Positions 3,914 to 32,989 of a DNA stretch of 64,000 nt are shown here, one piece after another. The stretch lies in contig CAZOOF010000004.1 in NCBI GenBank assembly GCA_964581365.1, positions 442-64,441 of the forward strand, given 5' to 3'. The stretch is from an uncultured Chromatiales bacterium (GTDB taxonomy: Bacteria > Pseudomonadota > Gammaproteobacteria > SZUA-140). A program made the translations under genes and the position numbers. Each line of letters starts with the position of its first letter. Position 1 is the stretch's first letter. The notes beneath the pieces are model-generated. The model worked only from the letters and a program-made list of their open reading frames with translations, made no database searches and was not told the origin of the DNA.

Positions 3914-5200
3914 ATGAACGTACTGATCATCGGCAGTGGGGGCCGCGAGCACGCGCTGGCCTGGAAAGCGGCGCAGTCTCCGCTCGCCGACCGCATATTC
4001 GTCGCCCCCGGCAATGCCGGCACCGCCCGCGAACTGCGCATCGAAAACGTGCCGATCGATGTACTGGACATCGATGGCCTGCTCCGGTTCGCGCGAGAGA
4101 ATGACATCGGCCTGACCATCGTCGGACCGGAAGCTCCGCTGGTCGCCGGTATCGTCGATGCCTTCCGCGCCGAAGGCCTGCGTTGTTTCGGACCGGAGCG
4201 CGCCGCCGCCCAGCTCGAAGGCTCGAAGGCTTACGCCAAGGATTTCCTCGCCCGCCATGGCATTCCCACGGCGGCCTATGCGGTATTCAGCGAGGCGGCG
4301 CTGGCGCGTGACTGGATTCGCGCTCACGGCGCGCCACTGGTGGTCAAAGCCGATGGACTTGCCGCTGGCAAGGGCGTCATCATTGCCCGCACCGTGGATG
4401 AGGCGATCGCCGCCGTCGATGACATGCTCGAAGCCAATGCCTTCGGCGATGCCGGCCATCGCGTGGTGATCGAGGAATTCCTCGAGGGCGAGGAAGCGAG
4501 CTTCATCGTCATGAGTGACGGCAACACCGTGCTGCCGATGGCCAGTTCCCAGGACCACAAAGCACGCGACGATGGCGATACCGGACCCAACACTGGCGGC
4601 ATGGGGGCCTATTCACCCGCGCCGGTGATCACCGCCGAAATGCACGAACGGGTCATGCGCGAAGTGATCGAACCCACCATCCGCGGCATGGCGGCAGATG
4701 GCGTACGTTATACCGGCTTTCTGTACGCCGGCCTGATGATCGGCGCGGACGGATGCCCACGTGTGCTGGAATTCAATTGCCGCTTCGGTGACCCCGAAAC
4801 GCAGCCGATCATGCTGCGCCTGCGTTCCGACCTGGTCGCGCTCTGCCTAGCGGCAACCGAAGAGCGTCTCGCGAGCATGACGGCGGACTGGGATCCGCGC
4901 TGCGCCTTGGGTGTCGTACTGGCGGCCGAAGGATACCCGGGCAGCTACCGCAAGGGCGATCGCATCGAAGGGCTGGAAGCCGCCGCCGCTACCGGCGCGC
5001 AGATATTCCACGCCGGAACCGCACTGGATGACGAGGGCCAGGTGTTGACTGCTGGCGGGCGCGTACTCTGTGTCTGCGCCCTGGGTGACACCGTGCTGGC
5101 AGCCCAGCAAGCGGCCTATGAGGGCGTCGATCGCATCCGCTGGCCGGGGATGTTCTGCCGCCGTGACATCGGTCATCGCGCCATCGCTCGCGAAAACTGA
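3914..5200 (+). CDS. purD: Phosphoribosylamine--glycine ligase
   Basis: 428 aa, MNVLIIGSGGREHALAWK... ATP-grasp; full-length match to the PurD family. Confidence 0.95.
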   Translation: MNVLIIGSGGREHALAWKAAQSPLADRIFVAPGNAGTARELRIENVPIDVLDIDGLLRFARENDIGLTIVGPEAPLVAGIVDAFRAEGLRCFGPERAAAQLEGSKAYAKDFLARHGIPTAAYAVFSEAALARDWIRAHGAPLVVKADGLAAGKGVIIARTVDEAIAAVDDMLEANAFGDAGHRVVIEEFLEGEEASFIVMSDGNTVLPMASSQDHKARDDGDTGPNTGGMGAYSPAPVITAEMHERVMREVIEPTIRGMAADGVRYTGFLYAGLMIGADGCPRVLEFNCRFGDPETQPIMLRLRSDLVALCLAATEERLASMTADWDPRCALGVVLAAEGYPGSYRKGDRIEGLEAAAATGAQIFHAGTALDDEGQVLTAGGRVLCVCALGDTVLAAQQAAYEGVDRIRWPGMFCRRDIGHRAIAREN

Positions 5201-5205
5201 TCCGG

Positions 5206-5778
5206 ATGGCGCCCGCGCCTTCCTGGCACCTGCGGCTGGCACGACATCATATCGAGGCCGGCGGCATCGTGGCGTACCCCACGGAGTCGGTATGGGGATT
5301 GGGCTGCGACCCCCACGCGCGCGATGCGGTGGAGCGGCTGCTCGAACTCAAGCAGCGCCCGGTCACGCTGGGCCTGATCCTGATCGGCGCCTCATACGAG
5401 CAGATTGCACCGTACATAGACACCGGCATGATCGACCGGGCAGCCCTCGACCGGGCGCGACGCAGCTGGCCAGGCCCGACCACCTGGCTGTTACCCGCCG
5501 CAGATACAGTGCCGCCCTGGATCCGCGGCAGACATGCCTCGGTCGCGCTTCGCGTCACCGCCCACCCCGTAGCCGCCGCATTGTGCGCCACGGTGGGACG
5601 AGCCATTGTATCCACCAGCGCCAACATCCATGGACGACGCCCACCCCGTACCGCACTCCGCCTGCGGGCGGGCCTGGGTCGGCAGGTGGATTACATTCTG
5701 CCCGGGGCGACGGGAGGAGCTCCCAGGCCGACCCGGATACGCGATGCACTCAGCGGCCGTACCCTGCGTCCGGGCTGA
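5206..5778 (+). CDS. tsaC: L-threonylcarbamoyladenylate synthase (YrdC/TsaC family)
   Basis: 190 aa, IVAYPTESVWGLGCDP motif; the start lies 6 nt after the purD stop. Confidence 0.85.
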   Translation: MAPAPSWHLRLARHHIEAGGIVAYPTESVWGLGCDPHARDAVERLLELKQRPVTLGLILIGASYEQIAPYIDTGMIDRAALDRARRSWPGPTTWLLPAADTVPPWIRGRHASVALRVTAHPVAAALCATVGRAIVSTSANIHGRRPPRTALRLRAGLGRQVDYILPGATGGAPRPTRIRDALSGRTLRPG

Positions 5779-5781
5779 TGA

Positions 5782-6759
<978 letters not shown>

Positions 6760-28720: not shown

Positions 28721-29641
28721 TCACCCTCCCATCGCCCGATCCACCGTCGCGCGATCCAGGTGCGGCGCGAACATCTCGATGAAAGCGTACATGTAGCCAC
28801 GGAGCTGGGCCCCGCGGCGCAGGCCGAGGCGGGTGGTGCAGGGTTCGAACAGGTGACTGGCGTCGAGCATGCGCAGATTGCTGTCGCGCTCGGGATTGTA
28901 GGCCATGCTGGCCATCAGGCCGATGCCGATACCGATCTCGACATAGGTCTTGATGACATCGGAATCGATCGCGGAAAAAACGACGTTCGGGCGCAGACCC
29001 GCCCGCTCGAAGGCATCGTTGATCTTGACCCGTCCGGCAAAGGAAAAATCATAGGTAACGATGGGATATTGGGCGATCTTTTCCAGCGTGAGCGGCTGAT
29101 CGCGCAGGATGGGCAGCCCCGGCGGCGCGATGACGCAGTGGTTCCAGTCGTAGCACGACATCACCACCAGATCCTCGAACAGGTCGATTCCTTCAGTAGC
29201 GATGGCGATATCGGCAACCCCCGATGCGGCGAGCTGCGCGATCTGCATGGGATCGCCCTGGTGCAGATGCAGCCGGACATTGGGATAGCGGGCGGCAAAT
29301 GCCTTGATCACTGGAGGCAGGGCATAGCGGGCCTGGGTATGGGTAGTGGCGATCGACAGGCTGCCGCTCGCCTGGTCGGTGAATTCGAAGCCGACCTGCC
29401 GTATATGCTCCAGTTCGCGCAACACGCGTTCGGCCATGGCCAGAACAGCGCGCCCGGGCTGGGTGATACCGACCAGGCGCTTGCCGTTGCGCTCAAAGAT
29501 CTGGATGCCGAGCTCCTTCTCGAGCTGGCGGACCTGATTGCTGATGCCAGGCTGAGCCGTATTCAATGCCTGGGCGGCGGCCGATATGTTCAGACCACAA
29601 CGGGCGATCTCGCGAACATACCGTAGCTGCTGGAAATTCAT
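28721..29641 (-). CDS. cysB: LysR-family regulator, CysB-like
   Basis: The N-terminal HTH MNFQQLRYVREIARCGLNISAAAQALNTAQPGISNQVRQLEKELGIQIF aligns closely with E. coli CysB. Divergent from a sulfite reductase gene. Confidence 0.8.
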   Translation of the reverse strand: MNFQQLRYVREIARCGLNISAAAQALNTAQPGISNQVRQLEKELGIQIFERNGKRLVGITQPGRAVLAMAERVLRELEHIRQVGFEFTDQASGSLSIATTHTQARYALPPVIKAFAARYPNVRLHLHQGDPMQIAQLAASGVADIAIATEGIDLFEDLVVMSCYDWNHCVIAPPGLPILRDQPLTLEKIAQYPIVTYDFSFAGRVKINDAFERAGLRPNVVFSAIDSDVIKTYVEIGIGIGLMASMAYNPERDSNLRMLDASHLFEPCTTRLGLRRGAQLRGYMYAFIEMFAPHLDRATVDRAMGG

Positions 29642-29778
29642 ATCGCACCATATACATAAATCTTATTTGTATATAAGATATCATTATTTTTTTGAATATA
29701 GATATATTGATATCATCGAAATCCGCAGCGGCCGGTCAAGTACCGGCCGTACGCGTCTGCAATGCAGGAGAACATGCG
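29642..29778. promoter_or_regulatory. AT-rich (~70% AT) divergent cysB/sulfite-reductase control region. It holds two imperfect direct repeats TTG(T/A)ATATA(A)GATAT and a GC-rich leader hairpin CGGCCGGT-caagt-ACCGGCCG (29729..29749).
   Basis: A striking compositional island in a 66% GC genome; repeats and hairpin read directly from the sequence. CysB operators are known to be AT-rich. Confidence 0.5.
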
Positions 29779-31875
29779 ATGAGCGAAGTCCGGTCACTGG
29801 TCGATCACGAGGAACTCGAGCGCTTCGAGGAAAGCGTTAACTCGTTTCTGCGCAACGAAATCGATGCTGAGCGCTTTCAGTCGATCCGGCTGCAGCAGGG
29901 CATCTATGGCCAGCGCCAGGAAGGTGTGCACATGGTCCGCGTCAAGATTCCGGGCGGCTATCTCACGCCAGCGCAGCTCGAGACCATCGCCGAAGTGCTG
30001 GACCAGTACTCCGAGTCGGAGCACGCCCACATCACGACGCGGCAAGACATTCAGATGCACAACGTGCCGCTCGCGAAGGTCCCGGCGGCGCTCAAGACTC
30101 TTGCGCGCGCCGGCCTGACTACCCGCGAAGCCTGCAACAACACGGTGCGCAACGTCAGCTGCTGTCCGCTCGCGGGCGCCTGCCCCAGCGAAAGGGTCGA
30201 TATCCGCCTGCACCATGAGCACGTGATGCGCTACCTGCTGCGCCATCCGCTCACGCAGCACCTGCCACGCAAGTTCAAGATCAGCTTCTCGGCCTGCGAA
30301 TCGGATTGCGCCCAGGGCATGATTCATGACCTCGCGGTAATCGCCGTGAAAAAGGACGACCGCTATGGCTTCAGGCTGCTCGCCGGCGGCGGCCTCGGTC
30401 ACAAGCCGCGCAAGGCCATCCTCATCGAGGAGTTCATTACCGAAGAGGAACTGGTGCCCTGCGTAGAGGCAGTGATTTCGCTGCACAACCGCTACTCCGA
30501 TCGCAAGCGTCGCGCCAAGTCCCGCATCAAGTTCCTGGTCGAACGCTTCGGCGAGGAAGGGTTCGTGGAAAAGTATCGCGAGGAACTGGAGCGCACCCGC
30601 ACCGCGCTGCGCGGCCATGTTCCCCCGCGCGGCGAATGGCAGGACGGTACGCCATCGCCGGTGCATGCCAATCCTGGCGCACCCCGCAAGATCCTGACGC
30701 AGAAGCAGCCCGGTCTTCATGTCTTCCCGATCGGCGTTCCCATCGGCGACATGACCGCCGAGCAGATGCGTGGCATTGCCGCGCTGATGTATCGCGAACA
30801 GCTCAGCGATCTGCGCACCACCCAGGATCAGAATCTCATGTTCGTCGGCGTTCCGGAGGAGCGTATCGCCGCGGTGCGCGAGGGCCTGGCGGATCTCGGC
30901 CTCGGCGAACCGCAAGCCGGCGATGATGTGGTGTCCTGTCCCGGCACCTCCACCTGCCGTCTGGGCATCACCTCCTCGAAGATCATCGGCACGCGGATCA
31001 GCGGCGGCGCCATGGATCTGAGGATCCGCGCCAGCGGCTGTCACAACGGCTGCGCCCAGCCGGAAACCGGAGACATCGGTATCTACGGCGAGGGCAAGCG
31101 TCTGCACGGCAAGCTCGTGCCCCACTACCAGTTCTACATCGGCGGCGATGGCCGCCATGGCGGCGATATCGCCATCAAGGGGCCGTCCGTACCGGCCGCG
31201 CGCGTTCCGCTTGCCATTCAGCGTGTCCAGGCTGCCTATGCCGAGACCCGGAGCGACGGAGAAACCTTCTTTGCCTGGGCTCACCGGCAGGAAGCGGAGT
31301 ACTTCAACGGGCTGCTCGCCGAATTCAGCAACGTGGCTCCCGAAGAGCTGTCCGCGGTGCTCAACGACCACGGCCAGGAAGAAGCCTTCCGCGTATACCA
31401 GTTCGGAGGCGGCGAATGTGCCGGCGCCGCACAGGAAACCGTGGCGGCAAACTTCGCTGAGGCCGCCAATGAGCGCAACTATCGCAACGGCTTCCTGATG
31501 CAGCGCAAGTACGAGGAGTCCATCGAGTGCTCGCGCGCTATCGCCCGCCTGATCGGGCAATCCCTGCTCTTCCTGGCAGGACAGCCACCGGTAGAGAATC
31601 TGCGCGAGATCGGCGCCAAGCTCGCGGAGACCCTGAGCGGCAATCAGTCCCTCGGCGATCAGCTGATGAAACTGTCCGACGAGCTGGATCGTCTCGGCGA
31701 CGACTTCGATGAACCGGCCTATCGCGAGCTGATTTCGGAGCTCGACGCATGGACGGTCGCCGCCGGCGCCACCTGCCAGGACATCGACCGTCAGCTCGAC
31801 CTCAGCGCTTCGCTGCAAAGCATTAATGGCGGCGGCGCCACGGCTGAAAAAAAAAGAGCGGGAGCCGCGCTGTAG
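29779..31875 (+). CDS. Ferredoxin-type sulfite/nitrite reductase hemoprotein (Sir/CysI-like) with a ~170-aa C-terminal extension of unknown function
   Basis: Siroheme/4Fe-4S Cys cluster (SCPGTSTCRLG ... ASGCHNGCAQPE) and duplicated NiR/SiR ferredoxin-like halves. Start at MSEVRSL with AGGAG 9 nt upstream (the tracked ORF begins 29692). The C-terminus ends in ...TAEKKRAGAAL within an A9 tract. Confidence 0.8.
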   Translation: MSEVRSLVDHEELERFEESVNSFLRNEIDAERFQSIRLQQGIYGQRQEGVHMVRVKIPGGYLTPAQLETIAEVLDQYSESEHAHITTRQDIQMHNVPLAKVPAALKTLARAGLTTREACNNTVRNVSCCPLAGACPSERVDIRLHHEHVMRYLLRHPLTQHLPRKFKISFSACESDCAQGMIHDLAVIAVKKDDRYGFRLLAGGGLGHKPRKAILIEEFITEEELVPCVEAVISLHNRYSDRKRRAKSRIKFLVERFGEEGFVEKYREELERTRTALRGHVPPRGEWQDGTPSPVHANPGAPRKILTQKQPGLHVFPIGVPIGDMTAEQMRGIAALMYREQLSDLRTTQDQNLMFVGVPEERIAAVREGLADLGLGEPQAGDDVVSCPGTSTCRLGITSSKIIGTRISGGAMDLRIRASGCHNGCAQPETGDIGIYGEGKRLHGKLVPHYQFYIGGDGRHGGDIAIKGPSVPAARVPLAIQRVQAAYAETRSDGETFFAWAHRQEAEYFNGLLAEFSNVAPEELSAVLNDHGQEEAFRVYQFGGGECAGAAQETVAANFAEAANERNYRNGFLMQRKYEESIECSRAIARLIGQSLLFLAGQPPVENLREIGAKLAETLSGNQSLGDQLMKLSDELDRLGDDFDEPAYRELISELDAWTVAAGATCQDIDRQLDLSASLQSINGGGATAEKKRAGAAL

Positions 31876-32078
31876 ACCTGAGCACCTACGGCTGTCCGCT
31901 GCACTACATCAAGGCAAGGCATGAGTTGCGCGGCCGCACCGTCGGCGAGGTCGTCGATTTCGTGTTCCAGTCCGAGGATGCCGCGAAACAGGCGGCATCC
32001 AGCCTGGAAAAGGATGGCCATGAGCTGCTGACGCTGGACGGAGCCACGGCATCGATCCGACGCGGCGGAACCGCCTGA
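31848..32078 (+). CDS. TusA-like (sulfurtransferase fold) small ORF with no ATG/GTG/TTG start, in the -1 frame relative to the upstream reductase
   Basis: Stop-to-stop frame KKKSGSRAVDLSTYGCPLHYIKARHELRGRTVGEVVDFVFQSEDAAKQAASSLEKDGHELLTLDGATASIRRGGTA*; pattern G-CP-x-x...K...GE.V.F...D......GHELL typical of TusA/SirA-like proteins (CPLH instead of CPxP). Not in the ORF track because there is no canonical start. Confidence 0.4.
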   Translation, partial: KKKSGSRAVDLSTYGCPLHYIKARHELRGRTVGEVVDFVFQSEDAAKQAASSLEKDGHELLTLDGATASIRRGGTA

Positions 32079-32092
32079 GGCGTTCCGCCGCC
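32062..32092 (+). promoter_or_regulatory. Near-perfect hairpin GCGGCGGAACCGCC-TGA-GGCG(T)TCCGCCGCC. The stop codon of the TusA-like frame is the loop, and the stem ends 1 nt before the cupin ATG.
   Basis: Read directly; the arms are reverse complements apart from one bulged T. Confidence 0.5.
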
Positions 32093-32461
32093 ATGAACGA
32101 ACCGAAGCAGTCCAGGGAAGACTGCCGCCCCTTCATCACCCTCGATGGCTCACTGGTGCGTGAACTGATGCATCCCGGTGACCAGGGCAGGCAGAGCCTG
32201 GCTGAAGCCATCGTCCTCCCGGGAAACCGGACCCGGGCGCATCGCCACCATCTCAGTGAAGAGATCTACCATTTCCTCGCCGGAAGCGGGATCATGGAGC
32301 TCGGCGACCGGAGTTTCCGGATCACCGCTGGTGATACGGTGCGAATCCCCCCCGGAACACCCCATGCGCTCCTGAATGACGGGGACAATGAGTTGCGGCT
32401 CCTGTGCTGTTGTGCGCCGCCCTACTCGCATGAAGACACGGAACTGCTCGACCGGCGCTGA
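32093..32461 (+). CDS. Cupin domain protein (cupin_2)
   Basis: 122 aa; H-x-H...E...H metal-site pattern (HRHHLSEEIYHFLAGSG ... PHAL). Confidence 0.7.
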   Translation: MNEPKQSREDCRPFITLDGSLVRELMHPGDQGRQSLAEAIVLPGNRTRAHRHHLSEEIYHFLAGSGIMELGDRSFRITAGDTVRIPPGTPHALLNDGDNELRLLCCCAPPYSHEDTELLDRR

Positions 32462-32575: not shown

Positions 32576-32989
32576 ATGACAGACACGCAGCCCCCAATCG
32601 TCGTATCCAGCCTGGACCTGGATCGACTCGAACGAATCATGGACGCAGGCCAGTTCCGCAACATGCCCGGAATCGACGCGTTGAGGCATGAGTTGGATCG
32701 CGCAACGATCATGGAGCCCTCCGAGATGCCGGCAGGGGTCGTCACCATGAATTCGCGCGTGCGCTTCGTCGACGATTCAACGGGCTCGGAGTTCGAACTG
32801 ACTCTGGTCTATCCCGAAGCCAGCGGACAGGCCGGCACCGTGTCAGTTCTGGCACCGGTCGGCAGCGCCCTGCTTGGCCTGTCGGTTGGCCAGTCGATCT
32901 CCTGGCAGGTTCCCGGCGGGCGCAAACTGCAGCTGCGCATCCTCGATGTGGTCTATCAGCCTGAAGCCGAAGGCGAGCTGCATCGCTGA
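32576..32989 (+). CDS. rnk: Nucleoside diphosphate kinase regulator (GreA/GreB C-terminal domain family)
   Basis: 137 aa; Rnk-like; GreA/B C-terminal FKBP-like domain motifs. Confidence 0.75.
   Translation: MTDTQPPIVVSSLDLDRLERIMDAGQFRNMPGIDALRHELDRATIMEPSEMPAGVVTMNSRVRFVDDSTGSEFELTLVYPEASGQAGTVSVLAPVGSALLGLSVGQSISWQVPGGRKLQLRILDVVYQPEAEGELHR

Follow-up and report, generated by a model that had tools for sequence, protein, structure and literature searches.

A siroheme reductase gene of uncultured Gammaproteobacteria with a family-specific extension domain and a TusA-like segment in the -1 frame behind a conserved A-run

The reductase, its extension and the TusA-like segment

The stretch of DNA analysed here (the window, 64 kb from an uncultured Chromatiales bacterium; all positions given for it are window positions) contains a gene for a siroheme reductase that is followed, in the -1 frame and behind a run of nine adenines (A9), by a segment coding for a TusA-like sulfur-carrier domain. 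The open reading frame (ORF) of the reductase lies on the forward strand, as do all features described in this section, and it extends from an ATG at 29776 to a TAG at 31873-31875, coding for 699 amino acids (aa) on which residues are numbered below. Its public annotation is "nitrite/sulfite reductase" or "sulfite reductase beta subunit-like hemoprotein". According to Pfam, PDB matches and motifs, residues 1-515 (29776-31320) constitute a siroheme/[4Fe-4S] sulfite/nitrite reductase core similar to NirA and Sir. Pfam analysis revealed the tandem NIR_SIR_ferr and NIR_SIR repeats that define the siroheme sulfite/nitrite reductase superfamily (PF01077, NIR_SIR, 8e-46; PF03460, NIR_SIR_ferr, 3e-34, in two stretches). 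Plant nitrite reductase (NiR) 3b0h was the best PDB relative (8e-45), matches to NiR and NirA enzymes spanning 1e-37 to 1e-45. The C-terminal half contains the siroheme-[4Fe-4S] motifs CPGTSTC (residues 388-394) and GCHNGC (residues 421-426), whose cluster ligands C388-x5-C394 and C422-x3-C426 (CX5C...CX3C) were unchanged in 112 homologues. The protein was also scored against the named NCBIfam equivalogs for CysI (TIGR02041), Sir (TIGR02042) and NirA (NF007125/NF007126), and no cut-off was reached: the best score was 221.5 bits versus 523 for NF007126, with 111.6 versus 756.55 for CysI and 95 versus 731.5 for Sir. Since these scores are far under every equivalog cut-off, the enzyme forms a subfamily separate from the named CysI, Sir and NirA equivalogs, and it is only from the context of cys genes that a specificity for sulfite or for nitrite can be suggested.

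The N-terminal half of the reductase also holds a full CX5C...CX3C set (CCPLAGAC...ACESDC; 30160-30183 and 30292-30309, residues 129-136 and 173-178), which was invariant in 112 homologues, plant NiR having no Cys at those positions. This half matches Fsr (7np8), AsrC and DsrA/B models. Because of the complete Cys set and these matches, the N-terminal half may hold a second cluster or siroheme, unlike canonical NirA and CysI.

Beyond the core, the protein continues for about 184 aa (residues 516-699, 31321-31872). An earlier note on this DNA, made from the sequence alone, had described an extension of about 170 aa following a complete core. Both are present, although the core ends sooner than the residue 530 given there: since similarity to Mycobacterium tuberculosis NirA (1zj8) stops at residue 507 and the alignment with NF007126 ("NirA family") at residue 516, the core is finished near residue 515. 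Likewise, the start proposed for the extension, 31370, does fall within it, but one base out of frame and about 50 nt inside. AlphaFold2 (AF2) modelling, profile searches and alignments delimit an extension domain at residues 516-690 (31321-31846), ending in QLDLSASL. This domain opens with a Gly-rich loop, GGGECAGAAQ (31405-31434), that carries Cys548, and a helical bundle with C585 and C667 lies behind it. In an alignment of 121 sequences C548 and C585 were invariant and C667 nearly so; the conserved block reads ..F[KR]V.Q[FL]GGGECAGAAQ..V...F.EAA.ER.YRN.F..Q.. and is followed by E-C (C585), D..W and C-Q..D.QLDL (C667). Using these 121 sequences, AF2 modelled residues 516-699 with a predicted local distance difference test score (pLDDT) of 86, with helices at local positions 32-60, 64-85, 94-104, 109-127 and 131-155 and the GGGEC motif in a lower-confidence N-terminal loop ahead of them. 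A full-length AF2 model of an in-frame homologue (P0025; pLDDT 83) passes from the core to the bundle and then to an alpha/beta TusA domain at 693-756. The conserved-looking Cys residues, which the earlier note had listed beside an acidic helical segment, are borne out.

Searches with the extension gave nothing in Pfam at E<=10 and nothing in NCBIfam at E<=0.01; the PDB contained no real sequence relative, and Foldseek against the PDB returned nothing at E<=0.001. These results agree with the earlier statement that the extension belongs to no part of the canonical CysI/Sir/NirA fold. A hidden Markov model of the extension, run against 1.84 billion representative proteins, gave 75 matches only. 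In every full-length match (proteins of 676-785 aa) the extension sits at about residues 495-680, the other matches being fragments, and nine full-length divergent members kept the Cys of the "ECAG/ECG" motif and not C585 and C667. Since the profile finds the domain only in this position, and since only that Cys persists in divergent members, the domain is confined to this reductase family, with Cys548 as its key residue. The helical extension domain is previously undescribed. Its closest structural analogues are HEPN four-helix bundles (2hsb, 2q00, 1o3u), up-down bundles with target-normalised TM-scores of 0.62-0.66. An assignment to HEPN was rejected on Foldseek E-values of 0.4-2 (all >=0.39), identities of 10-18% and the lack of a Pfam match at E<=10; the Rx4-6H motif of HEPN was not seen when the extension was read by eye, no pattern scan being made. 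A ferredoxin-like or linker domain common to CysI and NirA, which the earlier note had considered as a competing identity, was rejected as well, given that the solved enzymes stop at the end of the core and the domain occurs only in this family.

Directly behind the extension domain lies the A9 run (31847-31855; zero frame GAA AAA AAA AGA), proposed here as a -1 recoding site. This is the sole A/T run of at least 8 nt in the 64 kb, in which 0.017 A-runs of at least 9 nt would be expected. Reading 31780-32100 in three frames showed that the zero-frame ORF ends with ...ATAEKKRAGAAL and a stop, directly behind gctGAAAAAAAAAgagc. The tail RAGAAL and the TAG (31856-31875) complete the TusA-less 699-aa product, the stop being six codons past the run. 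The -1 frame is shut just ahead of the run by a TGA at 31845-31847, opens at 31848 and reads KKKSGSRAVDLSTYGCPLHYIKARHELRGRTVGEVVDFVFQSEDAAKQAASSLEKDGHELLTLDGATASIRRGGTA up to a TGA at 32076-32078. The segment 31848-32078 (KKKSGSRAVDLSTYGCPLHYIKAR...RRGGTA and stop) was identified as a TusA-like domain from Pfam, alignment and dN/dS, and its catalytic Cys codon (31893-31895) lies in G-C-P-L-H-Y-I-K-A-R. A scan of the -1 frame from 31848 to the catalytic Cys codon found no ATG, GTG or TTG. The only start-like codon in this frame is a TTG at 31926, 3' of the catalytic Cys, where the JGI pipeline calls a 50-aa gene. Because the -1 frame opens at 31848 and has no start codon before the Cys, and the zero frame stops, the joining of the frames must fall within 31848-31872, 25 nt that open with the A-run. 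The conceptual fused product has 767 aa, with ...ATAEKKKSGSRAVDL... as the predicted trans-frame peptide over the junction. A separate downstream TusA gene, as the earlier note had it, was rejected on the start-codon scan: the segment is the -1-frame continuation of the reductase ORF over A9. A terminator between the reductase stop and the TusA segment was rejected too, the one weak terminator-like match (31941-31958) lying inside the TusA coding sequence and the number of matches being no higher than in shuffled sequences.

Frame of TusA among the relatives and selection on it

Homologue searches with the extension plus TusA segment, and then with the whole ORF, yielded 135 protein clusters, 130 of them classifiable. 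In-frame fusions of sulfite reductase (SiR), extension and TusA made up 78 of the 130; 68 of these, of about 760-790 aa, were fused without a lysine run at the junction, and ten were in frame through KK or KKK. A further 49 clusters (about 690-700 aa) stopped 2-8 codons past EKK, QKK or KKK, and three belonged to a TusA-less lineage. The extension is therefore not the unexplained orphan tail of the earlier note; it is the middle domain of a family of SiR-X-TusA architecture. Co-occurrence with the TusA-like and cupin genes had also been raised there, and it holds for TusA, mostly as a fusion, but for the cupin only in the closest relatives. In parallel, genomes were scanned, one for each GTDB species, and 80 loci were obtained, every one in a metagenome-assembled genome (MAG) from uncultured Gammaproteobacteria (Chromatiales, Thiohalomonadaceae, Acidiferrobacterales and "Muproteobacteria"). 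The frame at each locus was called from two motifs, C...D.QLDL for the end of the extension and CP[LV]H[YF].KA for TusA. Eighteen entries, of which 16 are distinct, had TusA in the -1 frame and 32 had it in frame, the latter count rising with relaxed motifs; no entry had it in the +1 frame. All 16 distinct shifted loci had a junction run of A9 or A10, starting at codon phase 2 in most (GAA AAA AAA A), at phase 3 in two (GTA AAA AAA AAG) and at phase 1 in two (GAT AAA AAA AAA); another relative, P0027, has A8 at the junction and also requires -1. The related loci, 625 kb in all, contain 24 A/T runs of at least 9 nt, and 22 of them lie at this junction.

A neighbour-joining tree of the extension placed all run-bearing loci in one clade of 20 species-level genomes including the window, the fusions outside the clade lacking the run. 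A slippery sequence (A8-A10) is thus conserved at the frame junction of every shifted locus, across diverged orthologues and in one clade only. Sixteen of the 20 members need the -1 shift, and four (L005, L006, L008 and L010) are in frame with A9, at 4547, 3764, 4553 and 4562 of the respective loci, reading ...KKKAE[VI][VI]DL.... In these four, normal decoding would yield the fusion and slipping the shortened forms, an arrangement like that of dnaX. A few other lineages of the clade have TusA in frame and a run that is shortened or missing, namely P0025, P0050 (EKNAE) and L007 (GKKNAE). A sister lineage (L071-L081; for example L072, about 4480-4545) has the same extension, ending in ...QLDLT.TLPTP.G.K and a stop, and has neither TusA nor A-run; in L071 the adjacent reading frame just 3' shows CysH-like sequence. 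Another relative, P0023 (an NCBI MAG protein of 1002 aa), has about 240 reductase residues duplicated internally (...NLPRKFKISLSGCEADC...GITSS repeated) and a diverged TusA-like end; its last 50 or so residues seem to be read in the wrong frame, and the protein probably arose as an artefact of assembly.

In the -1 frame, pairwise dN/dS of the TusA segment was 0.07-0.41 in 12 comparisons, and the out-of-frame TusA is under purifying selection. The motif [VI]DL..[YFL]GCPLH[YF][IV]KAR was kept in all 16 shifted loci examined, the Cys-Pro motif of TusA being present in these and in the in-frame fusions. Of 17 shifted loci, 11 have no in-frame start codon in the interval from the final -1-frame stop to the catalytic Cys, and nine of these 11 have a -1 frame that begins at the run or within it; a downstream ORF that lacks its own initiation and is under purifying selection is the pattern looked for in recoded genes. 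Since outgroups and some clade members encode TusA as a fusion, the fused product is the expected functional form. The opposite view would make the TusA segment either a remnant in decay or a separately translated product, and the 699-aa protein the sole functional product of the ORF. In its favour, annotation treats the intact zero-frame ORF as a complete gene, a separate 50-aa gene is called by JGI from TTG 31926, and the lineage L071-L081 has the extension without any TusA. The dN/dS values and the GCPLH[YF][IV]KAR motif retained in all 16 shifted lineages speak against a remnant, the 11 of 17 loci without an upstream -1-frame start codon speak against separate translation, and a protein started at TTG 31926 would lack the catalytic Cys, which lies upstream. 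Accordingly, we give this view hardly any weight.

The run itself also seems to be maintained. Elsewhere in these SiR genes 72% of lysine codons are AAG (in the window, 20 AAG versus 3 AAA), whereas the lysine codons at the junction are all AAA and the neighbouring codons add more A's. The A-run is thus kept against the AAG codon bias.

Proposed slippage at the A-run and alternative explanations

We propose that programmed -1 recoding across the A-run gives both a TusA-less and a TusA-fused reductase, probably by transcriptional slippage, and we put the probability of this reading at roughly 0.7. According to this proposal, a shift in the clade would have put the TusA module in the -1 frame, with the conserved A8-A10 run just ahead of it. 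By standard decoding the cell would then make the 699-aa enzyme without TusA, and RNA polymerase slipping on the homopolymer, the most likely route, would add one A to the mRNA and so give the TusA-fused enzyme of about 767 aa; alternatively, a ribosomal -1 slip on A_AAA_AAA would give the same fusion. Both forms would come from one gene, in a ratio fixed by slippage frequency. One additional A brings the -1 frame into register exactly. Bacterial RNA polymerase slips efficiently in vivo on 9 A or T, its RNA:DNA hybrid being 9-10 bp; slippage mainly inserts A's, and the products of Thermus dnaX contain one or more additional A's in falling proportion (PMC5009743). In E. coli, poly-A cassettes gave frameshifting of 10% at 7 As, 40% at 9 As and 63% at 11 As (PMC3711429).

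No cis-acting signals were found around the run. The 80 nt 3' of it folded no better than shuffled sequence (z=+0.87), RNAalifold on 20 loci gave -1.17 kcal/mol with 0 compensatory pairs and hence no conserved RNA structure at the run, and Rfam found no element. The spacer between the run and the TusA domain varies in length and sequence. None of the dnaX-type stimulators expected for -1 programmed ribosomal frameshifting (PRF), whether a downstream stem-loop or pseudoknot or an upstream Shine-Dalgarno (SD)-like element, was conserved. Transcriptional slippage is favoured because the run is 8-10 nt and never 7, its codon phase is variable, stimulators are missing and the direction is -1 only. 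Ribosomes may also contribute, since each run, whatever its phase, holds an in-phase X_XXY_YYZ heptamer (A_AAA_AAA or A_AAA_AAG). As the main route to the fusion, -1 PRF on these heptamers or sliding of ribosomes on poly-A would fit the exclusive -1 direction; two loci (L018 and L024) read A_AAA_AAG, which is the dnaX motif, and ribosomes have been reported to slide on iterated AAA codons (PMC4363877). Against this, the upstream and downstream stimulators are not conserved, PRF would need only 7 nt where the run always has 8-10, and the phase of the run varies among 1, 2 and 3, as expected where length alone counts. A mainly ribosomal route is rather unlikely.

Several points weigh against the recoding proposal. 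That slippage occurs, and mainly at transcription, we infer from comparative genomics only; what was directly observed is the domain architecture, the frame relationship, the conservation of the run and the purifying selection on the out-of-frame TusA. The window's own -1-frame segment matches Pfam TusA (PF01206) with E=2e-5 and 24.8 bits, short of the gathering score (28.6); PF01206 is precomputed for in-frame homologues with which it aligns. All relatives are MAGs or metagenome contigs, none being an isolate genome, and run lengths were taken from assemblies. In addition to the four species-level loci, seven protein clusters inside the clade have an in-frame A9. Because of these, the run is not strictly tied to the frame change, and it could also reflect length switching at the DNA level. 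The last point makes phase variation the main biological rival, since in-frame and -1 states both exist in the clade: slipped-strand mispairing would turn the TusA fusion ON or OFF in populations, and assemblies would show the majority state. Runs of A8, A9 and A10 are classical contingency tracts, poly-A/T is slippery for DNA polymerase also (PMC3711429), one clade holds both in-frame (four loci) and -1 (16 loci) states, and one A8/A9 difference separates near-identical contigs. The state is nevertheless identical across independent samples of the same strain, and the 16 shifted genome loci include no +1 state, some of which random switching should yield. Moreover, the gene codes for a cytoplasmic biosynthetic enzyme and not for a surface or restriction-modification function. 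We consider phase variation improbable as the explanation, and it would be compatible with RNA-level slippage on the same tract.

A homopolymer sequencing or assembly error would mean that the true run is one A longer and that the gene is a plain in-frame SiR-X-TusA fusion without any recoding. Homopolymers are prone to error, four related loci are in frame with A9, and some of the assemblies do contain errors. In L092 (a 1-kb Logan contig), 784-791 is an A8, versus A9 at 2669-2677 in the near-identical L093 and L094 from the same study, a difference that also counts against a fixed run length; with three indels in 1 kb, the A8 is probably a sequencing or assembly error and less likely a true heterogeneity in length. 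In the NCBI MAGs GCA_964384095 (L001, 4908-7014) and GCA_966191045 (L002, 2625-5017) a break also interrupts the reductase gene ahead of the extension, which suggests further frameshift errors in those assemblies; their junctions match clean assemblies. Contig names (NODE_..._cov_, k141_), going by naming conventions, point to SPAdes or MEGAHIT short-read assemblies. The exact protein of the window (P0016) was found on eight contigs (Logan, JGI, NCBI), and the two loci read, from Logan and JGI, both had A9; P0027 occurred on ten contigs, and the loci of six different SRA runs all had A8. As the same run length repeats in independent assemblies of P0016 and in six runs for P0027, random sequencing error is implausible. 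The shortened form repeats in 49 clusters from four independent sources (NCBI, JGI, ENA and Logan), and 16 species-level genomes share the same frame state; errors would fall both ways, while -1 versus +1 was 16:0. Even an in-frame A10-11 kept against the AAG codon bias would remain a slippage site. Such an error is thus a very improbable account of the frame change. The earlier note had allowed for a mis-called frame: a frame change does exist, but it lies in the DNA itself, where it is reproducible and conserved.

Gene context, a possible sulfur relay and known systems

Upstream of the reductase gene, a LysR-type regulator of the CysB family is encoded divergently (28721-29641, reverse strand; NCBIfam NF009327, 480 bits versus a cut-off of 402; Pfam HTH_1 and LysR_substrate), and the GC content of the spacer between the two genes falls to 48%. 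The divergent cysB across an AT-rich region that the earlier note had reported was therefore found. In the 80 related loci, the neighbours include a CysB-family regulator in 56, a TauE/SafE-type membrane protein in 46, a CysH-type APS/PAPS reductase in about 43 (for example, L014 4834-5532), CysD in 12 and CysN in 11. Since these genes recur as neighbours, the gene is almost certainly a CysB-linked assimilatory reductase, as had been suspected. The next gene downstream (32093-32461, forward strand) codes for a Cupin_2 protein (Pfam, 1.3e-15). It is syntenic only in close relatives (L084-L091, L093 and L094) and absent from the widely conserved neighbours, and it is probably not part of the reductase system. 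Two genes downstream lies rnk (32576-32989, forward strand; NF004396, 163 bits), coding for a GreA/GreB-like factor of the RNA polymerase secondary channel and syntenic in L084-L091; a link between it and RNA polymerase slippage at the nearby A-run would be pure speculation. In L014, the ORF 3' of cysH (5668-6612) looks like a phosphoribulokinase by eye, and similar sequence occurs in a cluster of 20 loci; such neighbours would fit autotrophic, sulfur-cycling hosts. An antisense ORF of 674 aa (29794-31818, reverse strand) covers nearly the whole reductase gene, and like shadow ORFs occur in 68 related loci; they look like a product of GC-rich codon structure and not like genes.

More speculatively, Cys548 and the TusA Cys might form a persulfide relay that draws reduced sulfur from the siroheme site, as DsrC does for DsrAB. 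The mobile Gly-rich loop would bring Cys548 to the siroheme site; from there the TusA Cys of the long isoform would receive the sulfur as a persulfide, and the short isoform would release sulfide. The combined proposal, in which programmed transcriptional slippage sets the ratio of TusA-less to TusA-tethered enzyme and a DsrC-like mobile Cys548 hands siroheme sulfur as persulfide to the TusA Cys, is doubtful and offered as a tentative model. As in the TusA relay and in DsrAB-DsrC, a siroheme sulfite reductase is tethered to a TusA-type domain with a CP-motif Cys and bears a conserved Cys on a flexible Gly-rich arm. The Cys arm of DsrC enters DsrAB. Unlike DsrC/TusE, the extension is a predicted helical bundle of another fold, and unlike in dsr systems the context is assimilatory (cysB, cysH, cysDN), and the relay is hypothetical. 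The GGGECAGAAQ loop had pLDDT <50 in the P0025 model, and this poor modelling of the Cys loop, like the conjectural function of the relay itself, is a further point against the overall proposal. If the model is true, part of the assimilated sulfur would leave the enzyme protein-bound and not as free sulfide. The presence of a three-module enzyme (SiR, Cys domain and TusA) in Gammaproteobacteria that are uncultured and take part in the sulfur cycle suggests that a persulfide relay can be fed by an assimilatory sulfite reductase.

To our knowledge, few conserved recoding events have been described in ordinary bacterial chromosomal genes, roughly dnaX, prfB, copA, csoS2 and tssM. The reductase would extend this list by a metabolic enzyme, with recoding deciding whether a complete sulfur-carrier domain is attached. 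Its sister lineages offer natural controls, some being fused in frame, some fused in frame with the run retained and some devoid of TusA. In public annotation, the TusA domain of such genes goes missing or is reduced to a called fragment of 50 aa. Literature searches on slippage, sulfite reductase, TusA, NirA and fusion returned no report of such recoding, and the main texts of the Atkins 2016 review and the Antonov 2013 GeneTack paper mention neither sulfite nor TusA.

The closest parallel is dnaX (tau/gamma), which is likewise a chromosomal, non-mobile gene with two C-terminally different products made by slipping on an A-run of lysine codons, and in which related lineages put the same run in differing frame arrangements (PMC5009743, PMC3711429). 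The E. coli gene uses -1 PRF at A_AAA_AAG and that of Thermus thermophilus transcriptional slippage at a 9-nt A/T run (PMC5009743, PMC3711429). In both, slipping leads to the shorter product, whereas in the reductase it would mostly lead to the longer, domain-bearing one, four lineages being reversed; E. coli dnaX also has a stimulatory SD and a stem-loop, elements that the reductase junction lacks, and the protein families are unrelated. The OrfA-OrfB transposases of insertion sequence (IS) elements and tssM of Citrobacter rodentium resemble the reductase in that a second ORF without its own start is joined in the -1 frame over an A-run, giving two length variants (PMC1088944, PMC4256274). 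They differ in that the gene described here codes for a core metabolic enzyme and its arrangement is conserved over a clade of free-living bacteria, not in a mobile element or a single strain. With the ferredoxin-dependent monomeric SiR and NiR enzymes (NirA/SirA 1zj8, plant NiR 3b0h/2akj, maize SiR 5h8v) it shares the two-repeat core and the C-terminal CX5C...CX3C set, to which it adds the N-terminal CX5C...CX3C set and the extension and TusA modules, found in none of the solved enzymes. The proposed recoding mechanism is therefore of a known kind, that of dnaX, IS elements and tssM, while the gene family, its middle domain and the logic of an optional carrier domain are new.

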